From assembly GCA_964563715.1 (NCBI GenBank), contig CAZLXA010000003.1, positions 1 to 59,150 of the forward strand: a stretch of 59,150 nucleotides of DNA. Reading direction: 5' to 3'. Both the position numbers and the translations under genes were made by a program. Shown here in pieces: positions 6,940 to 57,426 of the stretch. Every line of letters begins with the position of its first letter. Within the stretch, counting starts at the first letter, position 1. Source of the DNA: an uncultured Candidatus Saccharibacteria bacterium (GTDB lineage: Bacteria; Patescibacteriota; Minisyncoccia; Phycocordibacterales; UBA9973). Under the pieces are notes generated by a model. That model was not told where the DNA came from. It did no database searches and saw nothing but the letters and a program-made list of their open reading frames with translations.

Positions 6940-6942
6940 AGT

Positions 6943-14217: not shown

Positions 14218-14251
14218 ATAAATTTATATTTTCAAAAATAAATACAAGCTA

Positions 14252-14336
14252 CACAAATTATATTCCGAAAAAAGTCCTCGGATGAGGGAGGACGAGGAGC
14301 CAGACATTTTTTCGTAAAATAATTTGTTCCGCTTTA
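14252..14336 (+). repeat. hairpin-forming leader element, copy A, ending 7 nt before the infB ATG
   Basis: The 22-nt left arm CACAAATTATATTCCGAAAAAA and the 35-nt right arm AGACATTTTTTCGTAAAATAATTTGTTCCGCTTTA are identical to copy B. ACAAATTAT pairs with ATAATTTGT, and CGAAAAAA pairs with TTTTTTCG. Confidence 0.8.
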
Positions 14337-15852: not shown

Positions 15853-15861
15853 CAAAAGCTT

Positions 15862-15936
15862 CACAAATTATATTCCGAAAAAACTGTAAGAGGAAAAGGG
15901 TAGACATTTTTTCGTAAAATAATTTGTTCCGCTTTA
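15862..15936 (+). repeat. hairpin-forming leader element, copy B, ending 9 nt before the rbfA ATG
   Basis: Same arms as copy A, with a different and shorter central segment (CTGTAAGAGGAAAAGGGT). Confidence 0.8.
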
Positions 15937-15945
15937 TTTATATGT

Positions 15946-16272
15946 ATGTCAGAATATAGAAATGAAAAAATAAAAAATAATATCAAAGAACTGGCCGCTT
16001 TATATATTGAGCGTGAAGCTGGCCCGACTTCGATGATTACTGTCACTCGAGTTTTGATGTCCCCTGACGGAAAAAGAGCCAGTATTATGATTAGTGTCTT
16101 GCCGACAGAAAAAGAAAAAGCTGCCTACGGTTTTATCAAAAGAAACTTAGGTGAGTTACGGAAACACATCACTAAAAATTTACGGATAAATCCTATCCCC
16201 TTCCTAGATGTAGAAATTGATGAAGGTGAAAAAAATCGCCAAAAGATTGACGATTTGTTAATGAACGGTTAG
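15946..16272 (+). CDS. rbfA: ribosome-binding factor A
   Basis: 108 aa. KH-like core ITVTRVLMSPDGKRASIMISV. Located directly after infB, the conserved order. Confidence 0.85.
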   Translation: MSEYRNEKIKNNIKELAALYIEREAGPTSMITVTRVLMSPDGKRASIMISVLPTEKEKAAYGFIKRNLGELRKHITKNLRINPIPFLDVEIDEGEKNRQKIDDLLMNG

Positions 16273-23487: not shown

Positions 23488-23490
23488 AAC

Positions 23491-23524
23491 AAAAAATCTC
23501 CACAGAACCTGTGGAGATTTTTTG
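23491..23524. terminator. bidirectional intrinsic terminator
   Basis: AAAAA-ATCTCCACAG-AAC-CTGTGGAGAT-TTTTTT, between convergent genes. Confidence 0.8.
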
Positions 23525-23533
23525 TTATCTCTA

Positions 23534-26520: not shown

Positions 26521-29500
26521 CTAATTCTCTGACGGTATTGTGTTTGAGTCATCTGAAACAGGGCTTTCAGGAAGAGATACTACCACTGTTGTGTCATTAA
26601 TAGGTTCCGTTACTGTTTCAATAGATGGAGTAATAACCGGCTCTGTATCGATAAGAGGAAGTGGATTTGTAACGATTTCATTTTCAACTACTGGGGGATT
26701 TTCTGTTTCAATAGGAGGAGTAGCGACAGGTGGAGGCACCACAGTCGGTGTAACTTCAATTTCAGGGGTAGTGACATCTGTATTTGCTGTTCCCTTTGCA
26801 TTTATCAACATTTGTTTAAATTCTTCTTTTGTAATGCAGACATCATCAACACAAACATCACCGTTGACATGAAAAATATTGGCGGTAAATTCTTTGGCGA
26901 AAGTAGCTTGCTCTGCTAAAAATCGAGTAATAAGAGAACCGAGAGAATTATCCTTACTTGTATCTAAAGATGAAAGTTCTTTCACTATAAGGTCCATCTC
27001 TTGTATGGCCTTCACAGTGTAAGGTATTAAATTTGTATAAGAAATAGATTTCAAATTTGTATTCGGATCTGTAAAAACAATATCAGGGAATATTTGTTCT
27101 ACCTCTTGAGCAATAAATCCGACATGCTTATTTGTATTATCATTTTCATTATTCCAGTTATACATTACAGGTGTCAAAGCAAGTATTTTTTCTAGAGATT
27201 TCGAAGATGTATCAATATTTTCTTTTAAAATAAATTCAGAATTTTCGAGTGTTGTTATATTTTTCTTTAAATTTATATCTGAAGAACAAGCAAGTGATGC
27301 GGTTGTCGGATTTATATCGCAAGTCCCAGTACTGTTTTCAAATCTTACAACGATTCCAGAAACTGTATTATTACCAACTTGGAGTTGATATGAAGGACTG
27401 GTATTTCCAATTCCGACATTGCCTAAATTATCAACAGACATCAAATCAATTAAAGAATTTTTAAACCTAATACCACCAATTGATTGATTTAAAATCTCGA
27501 CATAACTAGTTATCCCTGAACCTGCATGATTGAGTCTACCATTTCCTCCAAACGCGATTGTTGATGATGATTTAATGTTACCCAATACATCTAAATTTGC
27601 AGCCGGAGTAGCTGTCCCAATTCCGACATTGCCGCCAAAATAACTTATAGCAGTACCTGCACCATAATATCCATACCTTCCTGTACCACTTGCAACATTA
27701 GTTTCTATCGCTCTAAAATCTGGAGCCGAGGTGAGAGTTGGATTAACATAAATCCCTCTTGTAATTCCATTTGCTGTTCCAGTTTGATTTACCGTAGGTG
27801 CGATATTTAATACATTAAATGTTGTACTATTTGACGCTGTAGCAATAGTTGGAGTTGAAGTAATTATATTTTGAGTTATACCATTAGTAGCCCCAGTTGC
27901 CATCGTACCATTCCCTAATCTTATAAAATTGGTAATTGTAGCACTTGCGTTTATGTCATAATCAATTATTGGACCAATGGAATTCGAGGTAACATTATTT
28001 ACAAAAAATGTTCCTGATCCTGCTGACAATTTTATAATATCTGTAGCAACAGTTGAAGTACCAACTACATGTAATTTACCCGTTGGTGTCGTCGTACCAA
28101 TACCTACATTACCGGATCCTGTTATCCTCATATTCTCCCTGAGAGTAGCTCCTCCTGTATCATAATTTTTAAATGCAAGGTCATAAGTTGCATTTGTTAT
28201 GGCAGCATTACCAGACCAGTTTAAAGTAAGCCCACCTCCAGAGAAAGCTATATCTCCAACTACTGTTAATTTACTACTCGGACTCGTCGTCCCAATTCCG
28301 ACATTACCAGAACTATTAATTCTCATCATTGTTGAACCAATTGTATTATTATTATTCCAAGAACCAACCTTAAAATCTAAATAATTTGTAGTTCCAATAT
28401 CAGTATGACCAGCAACAATTTGAGCCATCGATGTATTGGTATTACCCCCACCTGCTGTATTGCCATTAAATTTTATTATCCCTCTATCTCCATATGCCGT
28501 AGTATTATTATATAAACGTAACGAGGTACCAGCGGTAGATATTCCTGTTATATCAAGTAATTCACTTGGACTCGTCGTCCCGATGCCGACATTGCCGTTA
28601 GTATTATCTATCGCCATCCTTGTAGTAGCACCAGTTGAAACAGTACCTCCTGCTCCAAAGAAAAACTTTCCATTGAAAGTACCTATGTTAACGTCACCAT
28701 TGTTCCAACCAAAATAAGCTAAACCAGGAACTGTGGTACTTTTTGTATCATTAAAAAATCCAGCCATATAAGGTGATTCACTTGGGGCATGAACGGCTAA
28801 AGCAAAAGGGGTAACATTATATAAATCTACACTCTTAACTTCCAATTTTCCTAAAGTCGGTGTCGTCGTCCCAATCCCGACATTGCCGCTTGCCAAAACA
28901 TTAAGTAGATTATCATTATTGTACATTCCGATTGAAAAACGATTACTTGTTGAACCATCAGAAACATGCACATAATCAAAATGAGCTGAGTTATTTGTTG
29001 ACTTCGCTTTTCCAAGAAGGAACAATGATCCACTATTATTCACAATGTTTGGAGTCAATCCTTCGTATACCCATGAGAATACTCCACTTGAACCAGCAGA
29101 CGTATTTGATGTAATGAATGGAGCAACTTGAGTCGAAGCTGATGTTGCTCTGACAACACCATTTACGTCAAGAGGGTACGCAGGAGTTGTCGTCCCAATG
29201 CCGACATTGCCATTACCCATTACAGCAAATCTATTACCACCTATTAAAGTATAAGATAATCCTGAAGCTGTATTTGAGAAAGCAACTGAAACAGTAAGAA
29301 CTGTATCACTTGCAATTGTTGAAATTATTCTAGCTGTTTCTCCTGATACTGTAACTGTATCTCCGACCTTAAAAGTGCTCAAGAATGATGTGTTGGTTCC
29401 AGTCAGTGTCGTTGTTCCTGTAGTTGCGACTGTTCCGTTACCTGTTGTACTTTGTATAACATTATATAGGCCACTTAATCCAGTGCTTGATCCCGTCGCA

Positions 29501-32500
29501 AATCTACCTGCGGTATCAGAATAAAACATATAATTACCACCAGCGGTACGAAAACCACCACTAAGATTAGATAAATAATATTCATTACCTTTAATAGGCC
29601 CACTCGTTCTAACTCCATAACTACCATTAGTTGTTGTATTAAATTCTGTCAAGAAAGTACTATTTACTTCAAGTTTTGCAGCTGGATTAGTAATTCCAAT
29701 ACCTACGTTGCCTGCACTTGTAATTCTCATTTTTTCTGAGGTCACAGAATCTAAAGCAGAGCCGAAAGAAATAAAACTATCGTTAGTTGTATTTGTAGTA
29801 GTCCACTCCTGTTCTTTACCGAACCTCAAATACCCAGCAGAAATAGGAGCTGAAGAAGTTGTTCTAGCAAAATATGCATCTTGAGTAATAGAATGCGATA
29901 TGCCCGACGATTGGTCCATATTTCGTAGGGTAATAGGGATAGCATCTCCGTTATTATTATAATTCACGAGCAACTGACCATTTGAATTTATTTGAGTATA
30001 TCTTATTGTAGAATTCGTACTTCCTACATGCAAAAGGGCTCCCGGTGCCGTCGTCCCGATGCCAACATTACCAGAAGGATTTATAACAAATTCACTTGTT
30101 CCTCTAACATTTTCACCAGAAAAAATTTTAAAATTATTATCTGAATTATCAAGACCAATACTGTATTCAACTGCAGCATTAGTATTTGCAGAAAATTGCA
30201 CTTGAGAATCATAAGCAGAGCTACTAAAAGCATATAATTTCAAATTAGCATTTTCTCCCGCTTTGTATATTTCCAAATTTGCCCCTGGCGTTGTTGTTCC
30301 AATACCGACGTTGCCTGTACTTCTATTTATTGTCAATCTATCAACAAAGCCAGCACCTTCCATACTTTGTACATTAAAAGTATTTGCAGAAGCCCCATTA
30401 TAAAATAATTTGAAACCATAACTTGTTCCAGTTATTAAAGAACCAGCACCTTCTGCCATTACAAAACCGCTATCCTGATTTGCCCCAGACACTAACCCAA
30501 CTAAGGCATTATTAGCAAAAGCACTATCTCCAATTTGCAACGGAACTGTTGGCGTTGTCGTTCCAATACCAATATTACTAACCCCAATCGACATAATAGT
30601 CGTCGCTGCTCGAGAAATTTCTAAATTTCCAGTTAATGCGCTTAACGCAATTGTCGCTCTACTAGCACCGACTCTTTCTATTCTTATACCATCATTCGCT
30701 GTATCCCCTGACTGTAATATACTTAGTAACCCTGTAGGAGTATTTGTCCCAATCCCGACATTACCACCATCAATAACAGATAAAGCCGAGTTTGCTCCAT
30801 CTAAAAATTCTACAATCTTTCCTGTTCCATTTTGATTCACAGTCAAACCAGTAAGAGTAGAATTTCTTGTTATATCAATACCACCAGAACTTACCGTCAT
30901 ATTGCCGTTCGGTAGAAAAATGCTACCATTTTCAATTCTAAAATTACCCGTTCCAAGATTTAATAATGTTGTTGGACTCGTCGTCCCAATGCCGACGTTA
31001 TTTCCAGATGGATTTAAAGCAAGATTACTATTATACGATTGTATTGAAGAATATGTATTAGTTGCACCGAGATTAAAAGAAAGAGTCGTATCACTTCCTC
31101 CTGGTCCTATTTGCAATTTTGCAATCGGACTCGTCGTCCCAATCCCAACGTTACCATTCAATAACGTCTTTGTGATATTTGTATTTCCAAGAGTCACAGT
31201 ATTACTCCCTTGCCCTATTGCATTATATCCAATAACAATTTCATTATCAGTTCCATTGTCACTAGCCTTAGAATTACCACCTAAATATAATCCATTATTA
31301 CCAGTTGTTCTTTCTGTTATCCCATCTGAAATATACCTGGCTGACTGATAGCCATAAGCTGTATTTAAAGAACCGGTTGTATTTGAAACCATAGAGGCGT
31401 AACCACTCGCAGTATTGTTTCCAGCAGTAGTTGAAGAGAGTGCGTAAGCGCCATTTGCCGTATTATTACTACTAGTAACATTAGCAAACAAAGACTCTCT
31501 ACCTATTGCAGTATTGTTTGTTCCTGTTGTATTAGAATATAATGCAAGTATTCCAATAGCCATATTATTATTACCTGTCGTGTTTGAAGTTAATGTTCTA
31601 TAACCTAAAGAAGTATTATTAAATCCGGTAGTATTTGAGGTAAATGACTCACTACCAATAACTGTATTCAGTGAAGATTGTGAAGCCATAGTAGCAGTTG
31701 AACCAGTTGTAAGATTGCCAGCCCCGATTCCAATAAAAATATTATTACCAGTTGGAGTTATTGAATTACTATTTAATCCATAACTAAAATCAGAAATAAA
31801 AGGCGATGATCCTTTATAAATTATTCCATACGGAGTACTCCCTGTTGTTGTTGGTAGTCTAAAGTTTTTTGTAATTTCTAATTGCTGATTTGGTGTTGTT
31901 GTTCCAATGCCGACGTTACCATCTTTATCAATCCTCATTTTTTCTGAATTAACAGAACCATTGTTTGTTTGGAAAATCAAATACCCTTCAAGATTTGTAG
32001 TATAGTTTGCATATATACCTGCAATATTACCCCAAGATGGTCGTCGAAAATTTATCGATTGACCATTTTCTATTATTAGATTACCTGCTGAAATATGTAA
32101 TTTTTCTAATGGATTTGTCGTTCCAATGCCGACGTTTCCATTATTTAAAATAGTAACTTTATCAGAACCGCCAATCATAAAATGAAGTGGGTAAAGTCCA
32201 ATATTATTTATATATCCATCTCCTGTATTGGTATTAGAATATAACTCCATATAATTTCCACCACCACTTCCATCATATCCAAAAATAAGTTTTGGTGTGT
32301 TCCCAATCGTTGTTGCTCCTATTCTTATTCCTTTATCGGTAAGATGTAATCCTGCGGTCGGTGCCGTCGTTCCGATACCCACATTACCTGTGTTGTCAAT
32401 CAACATCCTAGTAAGAGAATCAGAACCGAAACCACCTGTTCTGAATGCTAATGTTCTTCCAGATGCGCTACCTAGAATCATTCTAGAAGACCCATCAAAA

Positions 32501-34215
32501 AACAAAGCTCCTTGTGAATTTGAAAATAAAAATTGATGACTATCTGTGGAATCATTTCCAATTAAAACATTTCCCTCAACTTCTAATTTTTGAGTTGGGT
32601 TTGTTGTTCCGATTCCAATATTTCCATTACCATTCATTCTCATATATTCTGTACTTCCAACCATAAATTTAACTGCGTAAGAAGAAGAATATGGTTTTAT
32701 AAAAAAATCTGTAGAACCAATAACCCCTGCAATACTACTAATTTGCCCCGATCCCATATTTAAACCAGCGATATAACTTGTAGTCCAATATTTACTAGGA
32801 ATTCCGAGTGAACCACCAGATGATACTGTTGGAACAATATTCCCAGTCACAGTTAATGCATCAGTTGGTGATGTCGTTCCCATTCCAACTCGGTGATTCA
32901 CACTATCAACAAATAAAGTATTCGTATCAACAGTTAAATTATGTAGACCCAAATCAACATTGGTATTTCCACCTGTATAAGGAATTAATCCTGACAAATT
33001 AGAAGGGGTTAAATAATTTCCCGCTGGTTGTTTATTATTAAAAGTTAACCAATCTGTTGATGCTAGATATCCATCAACCAAATTTGTGGCCACTCCTAAT
33101 TTTGTTTTTATAGAAGAATTTGTTTCATCTCCTGTATTTGTCCCAGAAAGATTTGAGCCAATAATATTTCCTGTGGCTAAAATATTCCCGTCTACACTTA
33201 TTTTCTCTGAAGGAGTACTTGTCCCTATTCCCAACCTAGAATTCGTACTATCCCAAAATAAATTTGTATTATCCTCTGTAAGTCCAGATGCTCCCTGGAA
33301 TGGAATTGAACCGAAAGTAAATGCGGGGTTAATAGTCCCAACTACATTTCCCGTGAGGTTACCGGTGATAGTTAGATCTCCGTTGATATTTGCATCACCT
33401 GAAACAATAAGAGATTTTGTCTCTACTTCATCTGCTAGTGAATTAGATAACCCTTTGATGCTGTCTGATATAGAATCAAATATTTTACTGACTTGTCGAG
33501 AAAAAAATACTTCTGAGACAAAATTAGAAACATCGATACTGTTTCCGTTTTCACCTTTCGGTCCTTGAGGGCCAACTGGCCCAATCAAACCTTGTGAACC
33601 TTGAATTATTTTTGTATCTGTTTTAGTTATTTGGATTGCTGGTGGAATAATTTCGTTTTTTGTTGTTTTTGGATTTTCTTTATTTGATGAGGGAATACTA
33701 GGAACAGTTTTCTTTGAAGTATTATTATCAGAAATAATTGTATCAGTATTTTTATTGTCGATTCCTATAACTGCTTGATTAAGAGCAATTCTTGTTTCAA
33801 CAAAATTGTTTATTAGTCCTTTTATAAAATAGTTCCAACCATAAGCTAGGTCGCCAGCGACTGAGACTAGAGACGATCCGAGTGAGGTATTATTTGTATA
33901 TTCTTTATTAGAAAGTGGGATAGAAATATCGATAGCAGTTGCAGTAAGATTTGTTTTCTTATTTACAGAAAATTCTGTTGTTTTGATTTCAAATTGATTA
34001 TCTAAATTAGAAAAATCTGGAATATTTTTCTTAAACAATGAAAGTGAATCATTTATTAAACATGCAACATCTGTATCATTGCATACGATTCTTTCTGTTA
34101 TCTTTTCGTTATTATAAGCAAGTAATATTTTAATGGGAAAAGTCACAAAAATAACAAAAATCAGTATAATGAAAAATGTATACTTATAATTTTTTATTTT
34201 TTTATTTTTTTCCAT
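26521..34215 (-). CDS. giant membrane-anchored fibre protein: collagen-like stretch, ~20 GNVGIGTT repeats, C-terminal tail-fibre-type intramolecular chaperone (Peptidase S74-like) domain, Pro-rich tail
   Basis: 2564 aa. TM anchor FFIILIFVIFVTFPIKILLAY. Collagen-like run GSQGLIGPVGPQGPKGENG. The motif GNVGIGTTxPxxxLxV recurs about 18-20 times by my count. The C-terminal module reads CSSDINLKKNITTLEN...LTPVMYNWNN...HVGFIAQEVEQIFPDIV...YTNLIPYTVKAIQEM. Confidence 0.9.
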   Translation of the reverse strand: MEKNKKIKNYKYTFFIILIFVIFVTFPIKILLAYNNEKITERIVCNDTDVACLINDSLSLFKKNIPDFSNLDNQFEIKTTEFSVNKKTNLTATAIDISIPLSNKEYTNNTSLGSSLVSVAGDLAYGWNYFIKGLINNFVETRIALNQAVIGIDNKNTDTIISDNNTSKKTVPSIPSSNKENPKTTKNEIIPPAIQITKTDTKIIQGSQGLIGPVGPQGPKGENGNSIDVSNFVSEVFFSRQVSKIFDSISDSIKGLSNSLADEVETKSLIVSGDANINGDLTITGNLTGNVVGTINPAFTFGSIPFQGASGLTEDNTNLFWDSTNSRLGIGTSTPSEKISVDGNILATGNIIGSNLSGTNTGDETNSSIKTKLGVATNLVDGYLASTDWLTFNNKQPAGNYLTPSNLSGLIPYTGGNTNVDLGLHNLTVDTNTLFVDSVNHRVGMGTTSPTDALTVTGNIVPTVSSGGSLGIPSKYWTTSYIAGLNMGSGQISSIAGVIGSTDFFIKPYSSSYAVKFMVGSTEYMRMNGNGNIGIGTTNPTQKLEVEGNVLIGNDSTDSHQFLFSNSQGALFFDGSSRMILGSASGRTLAFRTGGFGSDSLTRMLIDNTGNVGIGTTAPTAGLHLTDKGIRIGATTIGNTPKLIFGYDGSGGGNYMELYSNTNTGDGYINNIGLYPLHFMIGGSDKVTILNNGNVGIGTTNPLEKLHISAGNLIIENGQSINFRRPSWGNIAGIYANYTTNLEGYLIFQTNNGSVNSEKMRIDKDGNVGIGTTTPNQQLEITKNFRLPTTTGSTPYGIIYKGSSPFISDFSYGLNSNSITPTGNNIFIGIGAGNLTTGSTATMASQSSLNTVIGSESFTSNTTGFNNTSLGYRTLTSNTTGNNNMAIGILALYSNTTGTNNTAIGRESLFANVTSSNNTANGAYALSSTTAGNNTASGYASMVSNTTGSLNTAYGYQSARYISDGITERTTGNNGLYLGGNSKASDNGTDNEIVIGYNAIGQGSNTVTLGNTNITKTLLNGNVGIGTTSPIAKLQIGPGGSDTTLSFNLGATNTYSSIQSYNSNLALNPSGNNVGIGTTSPTTLLNLGTGNFRIENGSIFLPNGNMTVSSGGIDITRNSTLTGLTVNQNGTGKIVEFLDGANSALSVIDGGNVGIGTNTPTGLLSILQSGDTANDGIRIERVGASRATIALSALTGNLEISRAATTIMSIGVSNIGIGTTTPTVPLQIGDSAFANNALVGLVSGANQDSGFVMAEGAGSLITGTSYGFKLFYNGASANTFNVQSMEGAGFVDRLTINRSTGNVGIGTTTPGANLEIYKAGENANLKLYAFSSSAYDSQVQFSANTNAAVEYSIGLDNSDNNFKIFSGENVRGTSEFVINPSGNVGIGTTAPGALLHVGSTNSTIRYTQINSNGQLLVNYNNNGDAIPITLRNMDQSSGISHSITQDAYFARTTSSAPISAGYLRFGKEQEWTTTNTTNDSFISFGSALDSVTSEKMRITSAGNVGIGITNPAAKLEVNSTFLTEFNTTTNGSYGVRTSGPIKGNEYYLSNLSGGFRTAGGNYMFYSDTAGRFATGSSTGLSGLYNVIQSTTGNGTVATTGTTTLTGTNTSFLSTFKVGDTVTVSGETARIISTIASDTVLTVSVAFSNTASGLSYTLIGGNRFAVMGNGNVGIGTTTPAYPLDVNGVVRATSASTQVAPFITSNTSAGSSGVFSWVYEGLTPNIVNNSGSLFLLGKAKSTNNSAHFDYVHVSDGSTSNRFSIGMYNNDNLLNVLASGNVGIGTTTPTLGKLEVKSVDLYNVTPFALAVHAPSESPYMAGFFNDTKSTTVPGLAYFGWNNGDVNIGTFNGKFFFGAGGTVSTGATTRMAIDNTNGNVGIGTTSPSELLDITGISTAGTSLRLYNNTTAYGDRGIIKFNGNTAGGGNTNTSMAQIVAGHTDIGTTNYLDFKVGSWNNNNTIGSTMMRINSSGNVGIGTTSPSSKLTVVGDIAFSGGGLTLNWSGNAAITNATYDLAFKNYDTGGATLRENMRITGSGNVGIGTTTPTGKLHVVGTSTVATDIIKLSAGSGTFFVNNVTSNSIGPIIDYDINASATITNFIRLGNGTMATGATNGITQNIITSTPTIATASNSTTFNVLNIAPTVNQTGTANGITRGIYVNPTLTSAPDFRAIETNVASGTGRYGYYGAGTAISYFGGNVGIGTATPAANLDVLGNIKSSSTIAFGGNGRLNHAGSGITSYVEILNQSIGGIRFKNSLIDLMSVDNLGNVGIGNTSPSYQLQVGNNTVSGIVVRFENSTGTCDINPTTASLACSSDINLKKNITTLENSEFILKENIDTSSKSLEKILALTPVMYNWNNENDNTNKHVGFIAQEVEQIFPDIVFTDPNTNLKSISYTNLIPYTVKAIQEMDLIVKELSSLDTSKDNSLGSLITRFLAEQATFAKEFTANIFHVNGDVCVDDVCITKEEFKQMLINAKGTANTDVTTPEIEVTPTVVPPPVATPPIETENPPVVENEIVTNPLPLIDTEPVITPSIETVTEPINDTTVVVSLPESPVSDDSNTIPSEN

Positions 34216-34340: not shown

Positions 34341-35246
34341 TTAAAGATTAAAAATTCTCTTCGCATTAGCGAAAATCGCTTCCGAAACTTCATTTTCAGG
34401 TAAGTTTTTTATCTCTGCGATTTTTTTAACTATTTCTTTTACATACACTGGCTCGTTTCTCTTGCCTCTATGAGGGACTGGAGCTACATATGGGCTATCT
34501 GTATCAGTTAGAATCATATCAAGTGGTGTTTCTTTAATAACCCGTAAATAATCACAAATTTCTGGTTTAGGCTTATAGGTTATCGGTCCTGCAAAAGAAA
34601 TATATACTCCTATCTCTACAAATCTTTCCATATCCTCTACACTGCCAGCAAAAAAATGCGACACTCCAATCTTTGGAAGTCCGACTTCCAAAGATTTTGA
34701 ATATTTCTTAAGTAATTCATAAACATCAAAATAAGCATTGCGAGTTTTATCAGTCGGCCCGCCTTGACCCGCGTCAGTCGAGGCAGGATTGTTTCGAACA
34801 TGAAGCATGAGGGGAAGACCAAGTTCATTGGCAAGTTCGATTTGAGCAATAAAAGCAATTTTTTGTTTCTCAATACTCTCTTCATCCATGTGATAATAAT
34901 CAAGACCACATTCCCCTATACCAACAACTTTGCCGAGCTTTATTAATTCTCTGTATTTTTCTTTATCGAAAACTTCACCACGTGAGACAAACTCTTTTCC
35001 TTCCTCTCCGAGCTCATTCACATCATGATATGAAGCTCCCGTATGAATTGGATGAAGTCCAATCGTTGAATAAACTCCTTCGGGATAATCATTCGTCATC
35101 TCAACTGCTTTTTTCGAAGTGTCATATTGAGTACCGATATTTATGACCCAAGTATCATTATCCAAAGCCCGACGAATAACCATATCCCTATCATCATCGT
35201 ATGCTTTAAAATTTGTATGCGCATGTATGTCTATGTATTTAGGCAT
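34341..35246 (-). CDS. tatD: TatD-family metal-dependent hydrolase/DNase
   Basis: 301 aa. Motifs IDIHAHTNF, GECGLDYY, LMLHVRN, VSHFFAGS and TDSPY. Confidence 0.9.
   Translation of the reverse strand: MPKYIDIHAHTNFKAYDDDRDMVIRRALDNDTWVINIGTQYDTSKKAVEMTNDYPEGVYSTIGLHPIHTGASYHDVNELGEEGKEFVSRGEVFDKEKYRELIKLGKVVGIGECGLDYYHMDEESIEKQKIAFIAQIELANELGLPLMLHVRNNPASTDAGQGGPTDKTRNAYFDVYELLKKYSKSLEVGLPKIGVSHFFAGSVEDMERFVEIGVYISFAGPITYKPKPEICDYLRVIKETPLDMILTDTDSPYVAPVPHRGKRNEPVYVKEIVKKIAEIKNLPENEVSEAIFANAKRIFNL
34669..34695. repeat. 27-nt perfect palindrome ATCTTTGGAAGTCCGACTTCCAAAGAT in-frame in tatD (family A)
   Basis: Identical 27-mer at 52075-52101 in argS. On the coding strand it is translated SLEVGLPKI in both proteins. 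Confidence 0.9.
34758..34787. repeat. second GC-rich imperfect palindrome in-frame in tatD
   Basis: CCCGCCTTGAC-(8 nt)-GTCGAGGCAGG. It encodes part of the extra loop NPASTDAGQGGPTDKT immediately after the conserved LHVRN. Confidence 0.55.
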
Positions 35247-41322: not shown

Positions 41323-42702
41323 TTAATTCATTCTTTCTTTTATATAATCGGCTATTTCTTCTTTTTTGATACGGACTTGTTCACCAGTGTCGCGGTCACG
41401 AATAGTAACAGAGTCGTCAGTTAGAGTATCAAAATCGATAACTATACACCAAGGTGTACCAATTTCATCTTGCCTACGGTAACGTTTACCAATATTACCA
41501 TTGTCATCCCATGCTACCCAGCCAAATTCTTTTTTTAATTCTCCAAAAACATTCCTTGCATAAGAAACAAGCTCAGGTTTATTTTTCAAAAGTGGTGAGA
41601 CACACACTTTATATGGAGCGATAGCTGGCGGAATTTTTAAATAAACACGGACATTATCTCCTTCCCCACTTTCTCGATACACGGAGCACAAAAGTGCTAG
41701 TATGGCTCTATCAACACTTATAGTAGGTTCAATAACATGTGGAATAAATTTTTCAGCAGTTTGCTCATTTAGCATTTCCATCGATTCACCAGAAAATTCC
41801 TGGTGTCTCTTTAAATCATAATCACCCCGATGTGAAAGCCCCGTTAATTCTTTTGTGCCAAAAGGATATTCAAATTCTAAGTCAACTGTCTTTCGACTAT
41901 AATGCGCTCGAGCCGTATCTGGATGCTCTAGTGGATGAAGTTTGGAAACATCAACACCTATTTTAGAAAGCCAATCTTTTTGTTCTAATAAAAAATTATC
42001 AAAAAAAGCTTCCCATGGATCGTTGGGGTGAATAAAATATTCAAATTCCATTATTTCGAATTCTCTTAATCGATAAATAAAATCTCGAGGTGTAATCTCA
42101 TTTCGAAAAGCTTTACCAATCTGAGCAATCCCAAAAGGAATTTTAGGAGACAACGATTGTAAAACATTTTTAAAACAAACAAACATACTTTGAGCTTCTT
42201 CGGGTCGGAGATAAGTTTTTATTGAAGATTCTTCAACTGCCCCCATTTTCGTCTCGAGCATTAAATTAAAAGTGCGAACCTCAGAAAGTGGATTGCCATC
42301 AGGACTTTTAAGCTTTAACTCTTTAATTTTAATGTCCATTTCATCAATCGTTAATTTCTCAGAATTTACTCCGGCCTCTTCCAGTAAATGGTCTGCTCGA
42401 TAACGCTTTTTTGTCACAAGATCATCAACAAGTGGGTCAATAAATTCGCTAGTATGACCCGAGGCATCCCAAACCCTTGGGTGCATTAAAATAGGTGTAT
42501 CGATTAAATAAATATTCTCTCGACTTCGGACAAAATAATTAATCCAAGATTCCTCGATATTTTTTTTCAACAATGACCCTAATGGCCCGTAATCATATGT
42601 TCCAGCTAAACCACCATAAATTTCTGAACCCGGATATATAAAACCTCTTCTTTTACAAAGTGAAATAATTTTATCCATCAATTTTTCGTCTTTTTCAGGC
42701 AT
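41323..42702 (-). CDS. glyQS: glycyl-tRNA synthetase (dimeric class II GlyQS type)
   Basis: 459 aa, with N-terminus MDKIISLCKRRGFIYPGSEIYGGLAGTYDYGPLGSLLKKNI. Confidence 0.95.
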   Translation of the reverse strand: MPEKDEKLMDKIISLCKRRGFIYPGSEIYGGLAGTYDYGPLGSLLKKNIEESWINYFVRSRENIYLIDTPILMHPRVWDASGHTSEFIDPLVDDLVTKKRYRADHLLEEAGVNSEKLTIDEMDIKIKELKLKSPDGNPLSEVRTFNLMLETKMGAVEESSIKTYLRPEEAQSMFVCFKNVLQSLSPKIPFGIAQIGKAFRNEITPRDFIYRLREFEIMEFEYFIHPNDPWEAFFDNFLLEQKDWLSKIGVDVSKLHPLEHPDTARAHYSRKTVDLEFEYPFGTKELTGLSHRGDYDLKRHQEFSGESMEMLNEQTAEKFIPHVIEPTISVDRAILALLCSVYRESGEGDNVRVYLKIPPAIAPYKVCVSPLLKNKPELVSYARNVFGELKKEFGWVAWDDNGNIGKRYRRQDEIGTPWCIVIDFDTLTDDSVTIRDRDTGEQVRIKKEEIADYIKERMN

Positions 42703-42727
42703 TTTATTTTAATTTTTATTTATAATT

Positions 42728-42755
42728 GGTAATTCGTAATTCGTAATTCGTAATT
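42728..42755. repeat. four tandem heptamers [G/C]GTAATT in the spacer upstream of glyQS
   Basis: ggtaatt cgtaatt cgtaatt cgtaatt. Confidence 0.8.
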
Positions 42756-44655
42756 ATTTTATCACTTGTCCATTCCCTGGTGTAAAATTTGGGTCATTAT
42801 ATAATGTAGTTGTAATCGAATTATGTTTACTATTTATCGTCGTATTTGTAAATGAATCAACCCCTGTAAGAAAAACATCTTTCATTAATTGTGGGACACT
42901 TCCAACTTGAGAAAGTGATGGTTTGAGAGCTATAACAAAAGAAATTTCTCGGTTTGAACTAATTCCAGTATTGGGTACTACCTGGCCAATATTCCAAACA
43001 ACTTCGCGAGTCACATCGTTATAAGATAGATTATCATTTGTTCCAACTGCTAACCCTACCCATTTAACATATACAGGTAATGCTGAACGAGCAGTTGCCC
43101 CGGTTATACTATTGGCAGAATTTGATAGTGTCCAGGTCACAATGTATTTTGTTTCAGTTTCGGCTTTAGGTGGCATATTACCAGTCAAATACACGGCTGA
43201 TGAGGCAATTTGGAAATCTGAAACAACCTTAACTACTTTTTCTGAAAAATTATTTATATCGTTATATGTCGAACCAAAAAGTGGCTCACGACCCTTGATG
43301 CTAACCTTAATTGAAACTTGGGGATTTTTAATAGTTGATAAACCAATGAGAGAAGTAGGCACAAAACTAAATGAGACTGTCCCATCTTCACCAGGATTAA
43401 TTTCCGATAATTCAGACATAGAATTTCTGTCCCAAATTATTTGATTATTCGCAGAATCATAAAAACCGTTCGTAGCTTTGACGGTATTTTTATCAAAAAC
43501 ATTTCCAGACAAATTAACGATTATTTGTCCATCTGTCACTCGAGTGGTTAAATTATTAGCCCAAGCGATTTCCACATTAACGGTTTTCCCTCCTGAGACT
43601 GCATACTCTTTCTGGTCACGACTATCAACTAAGATTTTTGCTTCTAAAAATGGTTTAGTAATTAATATTTTATGTAAAACCGAACTATAGACAACTCCAA
43701 CTTGTGATTGATTTGTTCCATTTGTTGTTCCGGCATAAGCATGAAATACTTGTTCTTCATTATCCTCCCCAACTAAACGCCCCCGTACTTCAATCATGAT
43801 TGGATTCTCTTCCGTTATCGTCGACAAATCCCAAATTGAATTTCCAACAATAGGAGCTGGTAATGCTTCATCAAAGACGAAATTATTTGGATAAGTCATT
43901 TGTAAAATCGGATTTTCTTCAGGTAATGAGGTATTTAATGTGGTGGTAACTTTAAATACAACAGGCTGATTTGAAGTAGTAGTATTTGGAGCTTCAAGAT
44001 TAATCGAAAGTGGTGCAATACTTATCGTAACTGGATAAAATTTATCTTTCGTAAAAATAGCATTAGACCCTTCAGGGTGATACTCTAAACTAACCTTAAT
44101 GTTACGGATTGACTTCTCTTGACCATAAAGTTTAACTTTAACATTACGCATCACCGTTTCTCCAGATTTAATGGTGCCGATTGGATCTTTTGGCAAGCGA
44201 ACAACTTCCAGGGTATTATCTTCAGCTCCCTTTGGATACTCAACAATTAAATTTGTAAACTCTAAACTAGCCGTATTATTATTTGTTATTTCAATTTGGA
44301 GTGGCAATTCTTCTCCCCCTTTGGTAAAAGCACTACCAATAACTTCTATATTTATTTTCTGACCCGAGACTGAAGTATCATTATAATAAAATTTATAAAA
44401 AGCAAAACCTACTGCGGCCAAGAAAAAAATAACCGAGATAAGAAAAAATTTTTTAAAGACTGAAACTGGTGGTTTTTTAAATTTATGATTCATATCAGTA
44501 TTTTCTTTTAGCTGACTATCTTCTTTCCATTTATCATTAAAATCGTGGTCTACTCTATGTAATATACCTTCTCTTTGATGACTTATATCCTTTTCGTTCG
44601 GGTCATAAAGATTCATTTTAACATCTTCGATTTTATTTTTTTCACCTTCTTTCAT
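42754..44655 (-). CDS. membrane-anchored extracytoplasmic protein, function unknown (beta-rich)
   Basis: 633 aa. Charged N-terminus, then one TM helix FFLISVIFFLAAVGFAFY, then a long beta-strand-like sequence. Confidence 0.65.
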   Translation of the reverse strand: MKEGEKNKIEDVKMNLYDPNEKDISHQREGILHRVDHDFNDKWKEDSQLKENTDMNHKFKKPPVSVFKKFFLISVIFFLAAVGFAFYKFYYNDTSVSGQKINIEVIGSAFTKGGEELPLQIEITNNNTASLEFTNLIVEYPKGAEDNTLEVVRLPKDPIGTIKSGETVMRNVKVKLYGQEKSIRNIKVSLEYHPEGSNAIFTKDKFYPVTISIAPLSINLEAPNTTTSNQPVVFKVTTTLNTSLPEENPILQMTYPNNFVFDEALPAPIVGNSIWDLSTITEENPIMIEVRGRLVGEDNEEQVFHAYAGTTNGTNQSQVGVVYSSVLHKILITKPFLEAKILVDSRDQKEYAVSGGKTVNVEIAWANNLTTRVTDGQIIVNLSGNVFDKNTVKATNGFYDSANNQIIWDRNSMSELSEINPGEDGTVSFSFVPTSLIGLSTIKNPQVSIKVSIKGREPLFGSTYNDINNFSEKVVKVVSDFQIASSAVYLTGNMPPKAETETKYIVTWTLSNSANSITGATARSALPVYVKWVGLAVGTNDNLSYNDVTREVVWNIGQVVPNTGISSNREISFVIALKPSLSQVGSVPQLMKDVFLTGVDSFTNTTINSKHNSITTTLYNDPNFTPGNGQVIK

Positions 44656-50900: not shown

Positions 50901-52637
50901 CTACATTTTTTCTGGTGTTTCAATACCAAGCAACCAAAGACCGTTTTTCATTGTTTGATAAAATGCTTTAATTAATTCAAGGTGATAACTCACATACTTA
51001 TTTTCATCATCAAGGATTTTTGTATTTCCATAAAAATTATTAAAAGAGCTTGCAAGTTGGGTTAGATAAGTTGCGATATGATGTGGTTGTAATGTCTCGT
51101 ATGAACGCTCTACAATTTCTGGAAATTGATAAATCAATTTTTCTAAATCTGTCGTCTCTAGATTAGTTTCTAGCGAAGAGGTTCTAGTTTCTAGTTTAAA
51201 TTCTTTGGATTTTTCTAAAATCGAATTGGCACGAACAGCAGTATATTGTAGATACGGACCTGAATCTCCATCAAAAGAAATTGATTTCTCAAAATCATAA
51301 ACTATATCACTTCCAAGTGATGAACGAAGTATAGAATATTTAAGTGCCGCCACACCAACAATTTCAGATATTTTCTTTTTTTCTTCATCCGAAAAATCTC
51401 TGTCTTTTACTTTCTCAAGGACAATATCCATTGAGTCACGTAATAATGACTCCCCTGTTATAACATTACCTTTTCGTGAGGACATCTTACCTGTGGCAAG
51501 ACGCATCATCCCATGAGTAATGTGCTTCATTCTACTTTCCAAATCTGGATGCATAAGTGAGATAGCTTTCTGAACAACTTTCATATACTCAGCTTGCTCA
51601 ATCGCTGTCGTAACAATAGAAATATCTGGATTTTCTTTTTCGAATTTCGTCATGGTTAGACCGATCTCTTTTGTCTCATAAGTTGGTAGTCCTTGAGAAT
51701 TTATAAATACACGAGTGTGAAGCTTTTTATCATAATTCTCCCCATGAAAAACTATTGCTCCGGCTGATTCTTCAAATACATTACCCGTATTCCCCCGGAC
51801 AACCTTCTCCCCCTTTACGGCCATTTCACTCTCAAAAAAATAGTGATCAAATTTTGTACCTAGAAGTTTGTATATTCCCTCAAATGCCTCTAGTGTTATC
51901 TTTCTTCCCCAATCATAAATTTTATTTATTTCATCATCAGACTTATCATAGATTTTTTTATTAATTTCATCTATTTTTTTCTTGGCATTTTCATCGTTAT
52001 CATACAAATTGCTTCCTTTGGAATAACACTCACCCATGTATTGAGCCAATTCATTATAGGAAGTCCGACTTCCTATCTTTGGAAGTCCGACTTCCAAAGA
52101 TTCTTTTGAATTTAAAATTGAATATATAGCTTTAGCAACATGAGGGCCAACGTCACCTTGGTAATTTGCCCGAACAGTTTTAGCACCAGAAAATTCAACA
52201 ATTCGAGAAATGGATTCCCCTATCGCATTACTCATTAAATGACCAATATGAAAAGGCTTAAATGGATTTGGCTGAGTATATTCAACCATCACTTTTTTAC
52301 CAGTTAGTATTTCATTTTTTCCCCAATTTTCTTTTTTATTTAAAATTTCATTTATACTTTTTGTAAAAAATTCTCGTGATAAATAAAAGTTTATAAACCC
52401 AGCACCGGCGACTTCAACCTTTTCAATTTCTTTTATTAAATTCTTTTCAATTTCTTTTTTAATAGTTTCTGCTAATTCTTTAGGATTTTTACCAAACTTT
52501 TTAGCACATACCATCGCTACATTCGTAGAGTAATCTCCATTCACAAAACTCTCAGGATGTTCAACAGAAAAAGAAACATCTTCCATCCCAAGATTTTTTA
52601 GAGCATTTTGTATTTGTTTCTTGATTTCTTCTTTCAT
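50901..52637 (-). CDS. argS: arginyl-tRNA synthetase
   Basis: 578 aa. HIGH-type NPFKPFHIGHL. MSSRKGN. C-terminal anticodon-binding (DALR-like) domain. Confidence 0.95.
   Translation of the reverse strand: MKEEIKKQIQNALKNLGMEDVSFSVEHPESFVNGDYSTNVAMVCAKKFGKNPKELAETIKKEIEKNLIKEIEKVEVAGAGFINFYLSREFFTKSINEILNKKENWGKNEILTGKKVMVEYTQPNPFKPFHIGHLMSNAIGESISRIVEFSGAKTVRANYQGDVGPHVAKAIYSILNSKESLEVGLPKIGSRTSYNELAQYMGECYSKGSNLYDNDENAKKKIDEINKKIYDKSDDEINKIYDWGRKITLEAFEGIYKLLGTKFDHYFFESEMAVKGEKVVRGNTGNVFEESAGAIVFHGENYDKKLHTRVFINSQGLPTYETKEIGLTMTKFEKENPDISIVTTAIEQAEYMKVVQKAISLMHPDLESRMKHITHGMMRLATGKMSSRKGNVITGESLLRDSMDIVLEKVKDRDFSDEEKKKISEIVGVAALKYSILRSSLGSDIVYDFEKSISFDGDSGPYLQYTAVRANSILEKSKEFKLETRTSSLETNLETTDLEKLIYQFPEIVERSYETLQPHHIATYLTQLASSFNNFYGNTKILDDENKYVSYHLELIKAFYQTMKNGLWLLGIETPEKM
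51160..51203. repeat. CTAGAAAC-type heptamer repeats inside the argS CDS
   Basis: The coding strand reads AAACTAGAAACTAGAACC...GCTAGAAACTAATCTAGAG, translated KLETRTSSLETNLETT. The same AAACTAGAAACTAGAA string lies in the spacer at 53418-53434. Confidence 0.65.
52059..52101. repeat. family A palindrome in argS: full 27-nt copy (52075-52101) plus a 15-nt core copy GGAAGTCCGACTTCC (52059-52073)
   Basis: The 27-mer is identical to tatD 34669-34695. The two units are read in different frames and give SLEVGLPKIGSRTSY. Confidence 0.9.
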
Positions 52638-57398: not shown

Positions 57399-57426
57399 AA
57401 CCCTCATTTGAGGGTTTTATTTTTTA
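57397..57426. terminator. bidirectional intrinsic terminator
   Basis: AAAA-CCCTCA-TT-TGAGGG-TTTTATTTTTT. Confidence 0.8.

Follow-up and report, generated by a model that had tools for sequence, protein, structure and literature searches.

Why do two unrelated genes, tatD and argS, carry the same 27-nt palindrome base for base, and a third, dprA, its 19-nt core? The first-pass annotation of the 59,150-nt stretch of DNA analyzed here (hereafter the window) had explained this by a small palindromic element that spreads into coding regions. A search of the window found the 27-mer ATCTTTGGAAGTCCGACTTCCAAAGAT exactly at both sites and the 19-mer TTGGAAGTCGGACTTCCAA exactly in dprA, as had been reported, and neither was matched in 100 dinucleotide-preserving shuffles of the window (chance expectation, 0). 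The annotation's count of three copies proved one short, as a fourth, a 21-nt palindrome in a different frame, adjoins the 27-mer in argS. The copies and their host genes are as follows:

34669-34695, no strand: 27-nt REP-type palindrome in tatD, A-TCT-TT-GGAAGTC-C-GACTTCC-AA-AGA-T, exact match
52075-52101, no strand: 27-nt REP-type palindrome in argS, base for base the tatD copy, encoding SLEVGLPKI, the first nine residues of ArgRS segment 180-194
52056-52076, no strand: second argS copy, 21-nt palindrome ATAGGAAGTCCGACTTCCTAT, in another frame (IGSRTSY)
1771-1789, no strand: 19-nt core TTGGAAGTCGGACTTCCAA in dprA, encoding LEVGLP, residues 87-92
34341-35246, minus strand: host gene tatD, TatD-family hydrolase (PDB TatD DNases, E 6e-42; homologs with Pfam PF01026)
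50901-52637, minus strand: host gene argS, arginyl-tRNA synthetase (PDB ArgRS matches, E 3e-62)
1513-2376, plus strand: host gene dprA, DNA processing protein A (PDB DprA matches, E 7.5e-40; homologs with Pfam PF02481)

The window copies in their host genes

The 27-mer consists of two 13-nt arms flanking a single central base (the arms reach 14 nt in tatD, 34668-34696), and the first-pass annotation, with its 12-bp arms and 3-nt centre, describes the same sequence viewed as a hairpin. All four copies in the 59 kb are genic and three of the four share a reading frame, those in dprA, tatD and argS lying in frame 0 of their host ORFs and encoding the peptides originally given for them, ALEVGLPTI, KSLEVGLPKIG and ESLEVGLPKIG, respectively. 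The half-site GGAAGTC occurs five times in the whole window, and four of these occurrences belong to the palindromes. No convincing degenerate copy with up to three mismatches was present in the window, and an Rfam scan of it matched two tRNAs and no RNA family covering the palindrome. The orthologous gene positions are occupied in independent assemblies (argS in L015, L097 and L106; tatD in L090, L103, L119-L128 and P0001; dprA in L055 and L199), and because the copies recur at the same gene positions in this way an assembly artefact is ruled out. The presence of identical 27-mers in unrelated genes is genuine and does not stem from chimeras.

In tatD, the palindrome encodes residues 185-193, SLEVGLPKI (coding span 34668-34694), and as single-stranded DNA it folds into a hairpin (dG -11.7 kcal/mol, z -6.3). 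The TatD ORF is intact, in agreement with the original claim that such palindromes leave the frame unbroken, and in the predicted TatD model (pTM 0.85) the peptide lies in a loop between helix 171-182 and strand 194-196. Orthologs with 57-70% identity to this TatD have no palindrome and mostly a short loop (KVK-GVVHFF); the palindrome and its decayed remnants are limited to a close clade, in which many orthologs have lost or degraded it. As judged from these ortholog comparisons, the tatD copy is a lineage-specific loop insertion with a net effect of +7 aa, which bears out the earlier statement that the peptide lengthens the TatD loop. Among the tatD orthologs compared there was no clean pair of empty and filled sites differing by a precise 27-nt insertion, and close-clade alleles with a short loop (such as REGIK and LGNIK) may either predate an insertion or derive from a copy that decayed or was deleted. 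Between genomes, arm changes at the orthologous TatD site are compensatory.

The two argS copies share 2 nt and differ in frame, the 21-nt copy encoding GSRTSY within IGSRTSY. Their centre base is identical (direct orientation), and together they fold into neighbouring hairpins, one each (dG -15.4). Of the two, the 21-nt copy has degenerated in the argS orthologs of L106 and L097. When aligned with PDB structures and with representatives at 50% identity, the ArgRS site falls in a loop of naturally variable length, a variation that would fit either an insertion or native sequence, and the argS pair is probably an in-frame insertion.

A different history is apparent for dprA, where the palindrome ends at 19 nt with no further arm pairing. 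All 120 close DprA orthologs are 287-291 aa long (287 aa in 116 of them) and have a native segment AL[ED]xGL[TIP]T[IM]SF, which aligns without gaps to Streptococcus pneumoniae DprA (PDB). Since ortholog length is constant and the alignment is gap-free, no insertion underlies the DprA copy, and the first-pass reading of insertions in all three genes fails here. In relatives that are increasingly close, the dprA site agrees with the 19-mer at 9, 12, 14, 18 and finally all 19 of the 19 positions, and on this comparison the copy is best described as an overprint of native ALEVGLTTI with the length unchanged. A copy without a change in length is not what simple transposition predicts.

Anatomy and distribution of the palindrome family

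The core GGAAGTC-S-GACTTCC is widespread beyond the window. The 19-mer was found at no fewer than 114 loci of genome_contigs, against about four expected by chance in 596 Gb, and nearly all of these loci are in CPR/Patescibacteria MAGs (CPR, Candidate Phyla Radiation) from independent projects. Neither an assembly chimera nor a lack of further copies, two of the outcomes that the first-pass annotation had set against its own reading, is what was found in these independent assemblies. The closest relatives of the source lineage are labelled Paceibacterota or Nomurabacteria, and the closest MAG, CAYVBT01, has 14 or more cores in the loci examined. Copy density is otherwise low and patchy among related lineages: distant-lineage TatD loci (301 kb) contained no core and close-clade TatD loci (79 kb) contained cores solely at the TatD site, so that in 380 kb of related loci in total there was none outside that site. 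No sign of a phage vector was seen, because none of 2.9 million viral contigs matched the 19-mer.

The consensus unit, A-nnn-TT-GGAAGTC-S-GACTTCC-AA-nnn-T, is a near-perfect palindrome of 27 nt, or nine codons, in which the 15-nt core is invariant, one centre base is asymmetric, and the outer arms are genome-specific yet complementary. The position-frequency table of 166 oriented copies gave a symmetric consensus, and among these copies there was no GTAG/CGTC or any other one-sided tag or guide motif. Arm positions -3 and +3 form a Watson-Crick pair in 83% of copies versus 38% of shuffled ones, with four pair types represented and very few G-T pairs; covariation reaches ±6 and not beyond, which delimits the unit to 27 nt. 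Adjacent pairs of cores (n = 24) have opposite centre bases in 18 cases and are most commonly spaced by 4 nt. No direct repeats flank the copies.

The 19-nt core contains no stop codon in any of its six frames, and among the cores in long ORFs all three frames and both orientations are represented. Depending on the frame, the encoded peptides are LEVGLP/LEVRLP, GS[PR]TSK or WKSDFQ. Of 171 cores, 59% lie within open frames of 150 aa or more, compared with 84% of random positions, which leaves about 40% outside long ORFs. Consequently, the frame shared by the first three copies, which might have been taken for a property of the family, is not one, whereas the more basic proposal of a palindromic family at the DNA level rather than a shared peptide is upheld by copies in all frames, in both orientations and in some intergenic positions. 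The host genes are housekeeping genes (aminoacyl-tRNA synthetases, TatD, DprA, FtsK, LigA, RecG, DnaG, enolase and others), unrelated to each other and occupied at arbitrary loop positions. Alignments used in the annotation and phylogenomics of CPR MAGs should have their REP-encoded loops masked.

At orthologous sites the 15-nt core is unchanged even though the host proteins are only 72-90% identical between clades, and each genome has its own outer-arm variant. Within single MAGs the outer arms are uniform (6/6, 4/4 and 6/8 copies). The outer arms have therefore evolved in concert within genomes.

A RAYT-like transposase and a proposed mechanism

Beside cores in relatives of the source lineage is an ORF of ~240 aa that encodes a Y1 HUH transposase (Pfam PF01797 at 39 and 36.6 bits, gathering threshold 23). 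Its top and sole NCBIfam match is NF047646, REP-associated tyrosine transposase (RAYT), at 42.2 bits; as this is below the equivalog cut-off of 80 bits, the protein is a divergent relative of that family. A PDB sequence search with this RAYT gave no match even at E ≤ 1. Its predicted model is of moderate confidence (pLDDT 67), and the best Foldseek matches of the model were IS608 TnpA, 4er8 (the Escherichia coli RAYT with a REP hairpin) and ISDra2 TnpA, with a probability of 1.00 and target TM-scores of 0.49-0.61 at E-values of only 2e-3 to 5e-2. Invariant in 46 homologs are H92 and H94 (NHFH), Y116, Y119 and Y152 (YIHxNP), the assignment of the catalytic tyrosine being putative.

The association of this gene with the palindrome was observed at 13 loci whose RAYTs are 38-99% identical. 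A core is present upstream of the gene in all 13 (about 40 nt away), inside it in all 13, and just past the ORF in 12, the remaining downstream position, in L068, being unscorable as the sequence ends inside the RAYT gene. Two of these loci, L115 and L117, were retrieved by protein and so independently of the palindrome motif. The internal copy reads GAA GTC G/CGA CTT CC in nine of nine genes, for which codon usage alone would give a probability of ~1% per gene, and an EVGLP-like motif is present in all but two of 120 RAYT homologs (exact EVGLP in ~110). The order H+-PPase, nusA, RAYT, large surface protein is kept in L001, L043, L076 and L115. Distant RAYT paralogs are flanked by other palindromes, as in L049, which is from the same MAG as L001. 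Because neither tblastn nor a profile HMM detected a RAYT in the 59-kb window, the link between the RAYT and the source genome comes from its relatives.

Given this evidence, we consider it likely that the palindrome and the transposase constitute a REP/RAYT ("REPtron") system of a CPR lineage. In such a system the palindrome would be the cognate sequence of the RAYT-like Y1 HUH tyrosine transposase, whose gene would be vertically inherited beside nusA. When single-stranded, the palindrome would fold into a hairpin that the transposase may bind, and the enzyme may then cut and rejoin the DNA, giving rise to new copies, swapped copies or both, and so keeping the copies of one genome alike. We propose this mechanism because of the precedent of E. 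coli TnpA-REP and of IS200/IS605 TnpA, and it is in this sense that the RAYT presumably mobilises or homogenises the copies. With no tag on a symmetric hairpin, it may be asked how the transposase would choose its strand and cleavage site. The internal copy in the transposase gene and the genome-wide homogenisation at fixed sites both offer a way to test how the copying of REPs takes place.

Copies that arrive in tolerant surface loops would survive as short in-frame peptides, since there is almost no intergenic space, the core is free of stop codons and the unit is nine codons long. In genomes with so little intergenic DNA, the palindromes persist in essential genes, to which they add loop peptides of 7-15 residues. 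At dprA, a native core-like sequence would have been converted to the core with its length kept. It is tempting to go further and speculate that coding sequence is the main niche of this RAYT/REP pair, that transposase-driven templated replacement prevails over classical insertion, with native look-alikes such as the DprA ALEVGLTTI being turned into the master variant of the genome at constant length, and that the RAYT-internal copy acts as a master template and/or an autoregulatory site. We regard this extended scenario as tentative and on balance doubtful. If it holds true, REP-type elements would have a new way to propagate, and essential CPR proteins would be steadily supplied with loop peptides.

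Alternative explanations and known systems

The alternative that survives best is that the palindrome is functional for the host, as a site bound by a nucleoid-associated, repair or regulatory protein or as an mRNA or DNA hairpin that tunes expression, and is kept by selection, the transposase-like protein being a domesticated binder and no mobiliser. The invariance of the 15-nt core at orthologous sites in proteins of 72-90% identity, the compensatory arm changes at one TatD site, the retention of the copy inside the RAYT ORF in nearly all homologs, and a RAYT gene fixed like a housekeeping gene would all be expected of it. However, the many close orthologs in which the palindrome was lost or degraded reveal no constraint, and neither the arbitrary loop positions in unrelated genes, in all frames, nor the patchy presence among related lineages is in keeping with a selected site. 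We therefore judge it improbable as an account of the family. It overlaps the REP/RAYT explanation without excluding it.

We also considered whether template switching (quasi-palindrome correction) combined with short-patch gene conversion could suffice without a transposase, the RAYT gene being merely a hotspot. Such a process would readily yield arms that are almost always perfectly complementary with few G-T pairs, the overprint in DprA without a length change, and the concerted evolution within genomes. Intra-strand correction, however, perfects any palindrome and would not keep recreating one 15-19-nt core; at dprA it would have produced TCGAAGTC-G-GACTTCGA rather than the consensus. As it also leaves unexplained both the layout upstream of, inside and downstream of 13 RAYT genes and the paralog-specific palindromes, we think this explanation very unlikely.

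Known uptake sequences such as the USS of Haemophilus and the DUS of Neisseria occur roughly once per kb. A DNA uptake signal of this kind, enriched by biased uptake and recombination in competent CPR, would accumulate in coding regions without altering their length. The palindrome resembles these signals in being a short motif found clade-wide and tolerated in coding frames, sometimes by substitution, as in DprA, where the copy grew from look-alike native sequence; in addition, the core is common to many related lineages and at least one account reports natural competence for Saccharibacteria (PMC10187176). Its density is nevertheless far too low (four copies in the 59-kb window, none in the related loci of 301 kb, and about a tenth or less of the density of USS/DUS), and an uptake signal would not be a 27-nt hairpin with covarying arms, show polymorphism for insertion and absence, or bracket and enter a Y1 transposase gene at 13 loci while paralogous transposases have palindromes of their own. 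This interpretation is scarcely credible. The least plausible alternative, to which we give practically no weight, is a convergent functional peptide LEVGLPKIG, as three of the four window copies being in one frame might hint, or an assembly or adapter artefact, the 8-mer AAGTCGGA being also the start of MGI/BGI adapters: the former is rejected by the identity at synonymous sites, the use of all frames and orientations, the intergenic copies and the dispensability of the peptide in close TatD orthologs, and the latter by orthologous copies in >100 MAGs across independent projects and assemblers.

A 5' GTAG/CGTC tetranucleotide defines classical REPs and is required by the E. coli TnpA-REP. The CPR palindrome has no such tag and is symmetric but for one centre base. 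It also differs from classical REPs in being mostly genic and in frame, in its apparently low copy number, and in that one 15-nt core is common to numerous divergent lineages of the CPR, classical REPs being specific to a species. In other respects the REP/RAYT reading agrees with the REPtron of Proteobacteria, in which REP, BIME and REPIN sequences are partnered with RAYT, or TnpA-REP (Nunvar 2010; Bertels & Rainey 2011; Ton-Hoang 2012; Corneloup 2021, PMC8266576). Both have dispersed palindromes of 20-50 nt with frequent inverted dimers (BIME/REPIN) and a Y1 HUH gene at a fixed chromosomal locus that is flanked by cognate palindromes, with paralog-specific palindromes; the short, perfect palindromes are most like group-3 REPs. 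The conserved copy inside the transposase ORF is unlike the REPtron, and the score below the NCBIfam equivalog threshold sets the CPR protein apart from known RAYTs. With IS200/IS605 insertion sequences and their non-autonomous derivatives with hairpin ends the CPR system shares the transposase fold, presumably the recognition of subterminal hairpins in single-stranded DNA, and the lack of target-site duplication, but its transposase gene, which keeps its syntenic locus, is apparently neither multi-copy nor mobile, and its repeat is a single 27-nt hairpin with no distinct pair of left and right ends.

RPE-1 of Rickettsia is ~100-150 nt in size. The analogy to Rickettsia palindromic elements drawn in the first-pass annotation was apt, in that the intragenic RPE-4 and RPE-6 of R. 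conorii have been equated with CGTC-tagged REPs (Di Nocera et al. 2013, PMC3733652); the same study reported intragenic REPs from other phyla, with REP dimers encoding 20-30 aa. Like those intragenic REPs and RPE-1, RPE-4 and RPE-6 (Di Nocera et al. 2013; Ogata et al.), the CPR palindromes are found in frame in known genes, including those for tRNA synthetases and for replication and repair, as monomers or dimers, in hosts with reduced genomes that depend on other cells. They differ, the RPEs being compared by description, in their core, the lack of a tag and a unit of 27 nt (9 aa), far below the size of RPE-1, and, on the evidence of the CPR side of the comparison, in being clearly linked to a cognate RAYT. 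The annotation had also supposed that no such class was described for CPR-like genomes, which is correct insofar as our literature search found no paper on this palindrome or on REP/RAYT in CPR and none containing the 15-mer, but not insofar as the anatomy is that of REP/RAYT and intragenic REPs have been published. A phylogenomic study of HUH proteins makes no mention of CPR (PMC6006769). With intragenic REPs and RPEs already in the literature, what is new here is the lack of a GTAG/CGTC tag, the copy in the transposase ORF and the mostly genic location, and the REP/RAYT partnership, studied chiefly in Proteobacteria, would be extended to the CPR.

Several RAYT/palindrome families, some of them nested, appear to be active in the same genomes. 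Other types of palindrome that were encountered include GC-rich inserts of 24-30 nt, ACACAGGG...CCCTGTGT, CAAGGGCGGGGCTTG and GGAGGTT-S-AACCTCC.

The palindrome as a DNA repeat family

The first-pass annotation had placed an identical 27-nt palindrome in tatD and argS and its 19-nt core in dprA, all in one common frame, and this held exactly: the positions are as described and each copy lies in frame 0 of its ORF. A fourth copy, abutting that in argS, had been overlooked. The copies in the window are as follows:

34669-34695, inside tatD (34341-35246, minus strand): 27-mer palindrome ATCTTTGGAAGTCCGACTTCCAAAGAT, exact match, frame 0, encoding KSLEVGLPKIG
52075-52101, inside argS (50901-52637, minus strand): the same 27-mer, exact match, frame 0, encoding ESLEVGLPKIG
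52056-52076, abutting the argS 27-mer: fourth copy, ATAGGAAGTCCGACTTCCTAT, other frame, encoding GSRTSY
1771-1789, inside dprA (1513-2376, plus strand): 19-mer core TTGGAAGTCGGACTTCCAA, exact match, frame 0, encoding ALEVGLPTI

Neither the 27-mer nor the 19-mer was matched in 100 dinucleotide-preserving shuffles. The 27-mer has 13-nt arms around a single central base, and as single-stranded DNA the tatD copy has a predicted fold of dG -11.7 kcal/mol (z -6.3). The core common to the window copies is GGAAGTC-S-GACTTCC, and four of the five occurrences of the half-site GGAAGTC in the window (33% G+C) are within these palindromes.

In a scan of 185,579 species genomes the 19-mer was found in at least 114 loci, with about 4 expected by chance. 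Among the matches listed, nearly all were in Patescibacteria (CPR) MAGs from many independent projects, with the labels Saccharibacteria, Paceibacterota, Vogel-, Giovannoni-, Nomura-, Moran- and Niyogibacteria; the few non-CPR labels were one Omnitrophota MAG, a Lentimicrobiaceae contig, Bdellovibrionales, Chitinivibrionia and one Gammaproteobacteria MAG. The 19-mer was absent from 2.9 million viral contigs, and an Rfam scan of the window returned no family matching the palindrome. The host genes are housekeeping genes, including those for enolase, RNase HII, FtsK, a Mur ligase, TruB, YchF, RsmA, GatB, RecG, Leu/IleRS, DapF, LigA, a PBP, a XerC/D-type integrase, DprA, DnaG and the CCA-adding enzyme.

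What recurs is a DNA element rather than a peptide. Among the matches listed, cores in long ORFs occurred in either orientation and in each of the three frames, giving LEVGLP (30), LEVRLP (13), GSPTSK (23), GSRTSK (8) and WKSDFQ (16). The proposal of a small palindromic element family stands, but without a fixed frame as a family trait. The symmetric consensus is A-nnn-TT-GGAAGTC-S-GACTTCC-AA-nnn-T, and its 19-nt core, read directly, is stop-free in every frame. The outer arms are variable yet complementary: Watson-Crick pairing was observed in 83% at pair -3/+3 (four pair types) versus 38% when shuffled, in 67% versus 34% at -4/+4, in 54% versus 34% at -5/+5 and in 68% versus 52% at -6/+6. 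Beyond pair 6 it was near background, which sets the unit at 27 nt (nine codons). G-T pairs were uncommon (1-9% at pairs 1-7), which makes a constraint on RNA a poorer fit than one acting on both strands of the DNA. Among the loci listed, 59% of 171 cores were within frames of at least 150 aa, versus 84% of random positions, copies outside long ORFs were also present, and 18 of 24 adjacent copy pairs had opposite center bases (inverted dimers).

Two Bdellovibrionales loci (L013 and L084) carry the 19-mer in a large orthologous ORF (620 and 976 aa within the available locus sequence) as GWKSDFQIPNQ, with no palindromic flanks and no transposase gene of the kind described below nearby; a few matches should arise by chance in 596 Gb, and this one is probably among them.

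A transposase associated with the palindromes

An ORF of ~240 aa recurs within clusters of palindrome copies. It matched Pfam PF01797 at 39 bits (gathering threshold 23), and its sole NCBIfam match was the REP-associated tyrosine transposase (RAYT) model, at 42 bits, below the cut-off of 80. Across 46 homologs, H92 and H94 of NHFH are invariant, as are tyrosines, including that of the YIHxNP motif. The best matches of its AlphaFold model (pLDDT 67) were IS608 TnpA, 4er8 (the E. coli RAYT-REP hairpin complex) and ISDra2 TnpA. Homology and modeling together provide evidence that the ORF encodes a Y1 HUH transposase.

When the layout was compared in 13 RAYT loci (38-99% identity), a core was present upstream in 13/13 (about 23-99 nt away, most often ~38-46), within the ORF in 13/13 (at 27-37% of its length) and downstream in 12/13 (4-110 nt away), the sequence of the other locus, L068, stopping within the gene. 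L115 and L117, which were fetched by protein and not by motif, had the identical layout. Of the 120 closest homologs only 2 lack an EVGLP-like motif in the RAYT loop (exact EVGLP in ~110), and in the model the product of the internal copy is a low-confidence loop directly before the HUH strand. Its DNA reads GAA GTC G/CGA CTT CC in 9/9 genes examined, whereas codon usage alone would give this in ~1% per gene; conservation of the internal copy is therefore at the DNA level.

No RAYT was found within the 59-kb window. The RAYT of the closest relative in the collection, MAG CAYVBT01 (TatD 90% and DprA 94% identical to those of the window), has the same atct...agat arms as the window 27-mer. In four genomes the RAYT follows an H+-PPase gene and nusA and is itself followed by a large surface protein, a constancy that suggests a gene fixed in place and inherited vertically.

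Distant RAYT paralogs (36-44% identity to the main family) are without the GGAAGTC core and are flanked by other palindromes: ACACAGGG-nnn-CCCTGTGT (L163, L172 and L173), an inverted dimer of CAAGGGCGGGGCTTG (L095), a CACAGGCAAGGCCTGTG-type palindrome (L049, from the same MAG as L001) and the sister core GGAGGTT-S-AACCTCC (L066, where it is also inside the paralog's ORF). In L148, L150, L163 and L172-L174 a RAYT paralog lies directly upstream of tatD. L036 and L066 have CPR class I tRNA synthetase ORFs, probably IleRS, with a histidine-phosphatase (His_Phos_1) domain N-terminal to the synthetase domain or embedded within it.

Eight palindrome copies occur in one MAG labelled Omnitrophota, and a 232-kb contig labelled Lentimicrobiaceae carries a truncated RAYT (C-terminal half) and two copies (L007, 6330-6872). 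These observations (L007, L017, L021, L037, L038, L053 and L067) are explained by transfer across phyla or else by faulty binning or labelling.

Insertion, overprinting and exchange of copies

Among 80 TatD ortholog loci, most orthologs at 57-70% identity lack the element and read LKKYSKVK-GVVHFF, and the element (net +7 aa) is confined to a clade at least 72% identical. That clade also includes decayed copies (AIGLPNI, ESGTLNI, EVGFLNI and SEVGLPKIR) and short loop alleles (REGIK and LGNIK). Compensatory arm changes were found at the site in L126 (TCGG...CCGA), L119 and L121 (GCGG...CCGC, with the center base also flipped in L121) and L135 (GTGAAGTC...GACTTCAC). In the TatD model (pLDDT 82, pTM 0.85), residues 185-193 form a loop from helix 171-182 to strand 194-196 that, judged by general TIM-barrel geometry, would face away from the active site. 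On this evidence the TatD copy is an insertion, and the earlier suggestion that its peptide lengthens the loop before GV.H.F agrees with the net gain, the clade restriction and the modeled loop.

The same protein has other inserts. A second in-frame insert in the window, the 30-nt G+C-rich CCCGCCTTGACCCGCGTCAGTCGAGGCAGG (34758-34787; residues 154-163, PASTDAGQGG; model loop pLDDT below 50), is absent from the closest ortholog, P0001; other orthologs have differing inserts at this place (QPAPDKQGGLAGN, PSPLSPSDSSPSQ, NKIHPALQAPLNE and DLSAQAG), which are probably further small-element families. The tatD genes of L125 and L120 have nested in-frame elements, with a 24-nt G+C-rich CCTGCCTCGCCGAGTCAAGGCGGG within the center of the palindrome copy in opposite orientations (products LEVRPASPSQGGLSKI and LEARLDSARQVGLSKI). 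L137, L180, L162 and L191 have other inserts, VHPAKGLAR or VHPARMGWAR and S[ML]PAGR[RQ]G, in exactly the palindrome's loop, which is a hotspot or permissive site for several element families.

The ArgRS site is a naturally length-variable loop, and the window ArgRS exceeds the usual long form by ~6 aa; its copy may be either an insertion or native sequence. The DprA copy is not an insertion: the length of DprA is 287-291 aa in all 120 close orthologs (287 in 116/120), their native motif is AL[ED]xGL[TIP]T[IM]SF, and the segment aligns without gaps to ALQNGGKTI of S. pneumoniae. Likeness of the site to the 19-mer rises with relatedness to the window, from 9/19 in L201 through 12/19 in L202, 14/19 in L200 (CTCGAAGTCGGATTAACAA) and 18/19 in L199 to 19/19 in the window and L055. 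The constant length and graded likeness show that native sequence already resembling the core was turned into the consensus. Palindrome correction within one strand was also considered for DprA, and would not by itself yield the TTGG...CCAA ends.

Outer arms are alike within MAGs: ATATTT in 6/6 copies of CAYJQG01, ATTGTT in 4/4 of JBAYHJ01 and 6/8 of CAILJY01, AATTTT in 4/7 of CAYTEF01 and ATCTTT in 2/4 of the window. At orthologous sites, including those in TatD, a Mur ligase (L018/L079), GatB (L029/L107), RsmA (L026/L058) and DapF (L042/L046), each genome has its own arm variant, and copies have therefore been exchanged or replaced within genomes and have not simply decayed in place. Core density is low and patchy across lineages, with no cores in 301 kb of distant-lineage TatD loci and cores at the TatD site only in 79 kb of close-clade loci.

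Relation to REP/RAYT systems and other repeats of the window

REP/RAYT systems are well known, and a literature search found no report of this element, nor of REP/RAYT, in CPR. The first-pass remark that it knew of no such class in CPR-like genomes holds for the host group but not for the kind of element, which is known as REP/RAYT and of which intragenic examples are published. A transposase gene accompanied by palindromes in this layout is the REPtron known from REP/RAYT systems (PMC8266576). Published examples of REPs within genes come from Opitutus, Thauera, Xanthomonas and others, with tRNA synthetase and repair genes among the hosts, and the intragenic R. conorii elements RPE-4 and RPE-6 were equated with CGTC-tagged REPs (PMC3733652), which supports the first-pass analogy to Rickettsia. 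New here are the CPR host group, a tag-less and symmetric element in contrast to classical REPs, a conserved copy within the ORF of the transposase, a mostly genic location of the copies, a single core across many divergent lineages with genome-specific arms, and overprinting without change in length.

What the analysis shows is a 27-nt repeat that forms a hairpin, has a cognate Y1 transposase, and displays insertion polymorphism and within-genome homogenization. By analogy with the biochemistry of E. coli TnpA-REP and IS200/IS605 (PMC8266576), the transposase would bind the hairpin in single-stranded DNA, then cut and rejoin it, which could seed new copies, swap existing ones, or both; selection would then retain only stop-free, frame-preserving copies in tolerant loops. 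Counting against simple transposition are the DprA overprint without length change, the absence of a GTAG/CGTC tag from the element consensus, and that no clean 27-nt filled/empty site pair was obtained.

Other repeats were observed in the window:

3238-3260: small G+C-rich palindrome CCGCC-GACAA-GGCGG at the 5' end of ORF 3187-5436 (its L201 homolog has Toprim and Topoisom_bac domains), encoding LSADKAG near the N-terminus, a peptide resembling the TatD insert DLSAQAG
26521-34215, minus strand: giant 2564-aa ORF, probably for a repetitive surface protein, with 12-14 dispersed copies of a 45-59-nt repeat encoding a conserved motif rich in G/T/N/V/I that by eye reads roughly GNVGIGTTTPS
14241-14336 and 15851-15936: near-identical ~95-nt segments (35 nt exact plus 33 nt at 91%) preceding consecutive plus-strand ORFs 14344-15852 and 15946-16272, which may be a duplicated promoter or leader
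13367-13417 and 42693-42757: shared TAATTCG/TAATTCT heptamer-like runs (TTCTTAATTCTTAATTCGTAATTCGTAATTAT), both at or near starts of minus-strand genes
6904-6944, 23488-23526 and 57389-57426: long perfect hairpins of unique sequence, with 17-20-nt arms whose outer parts are A/T-rich; they separate convergent or consecutive genes, are unrelated to the palindrome family and look like bidirectional terminators
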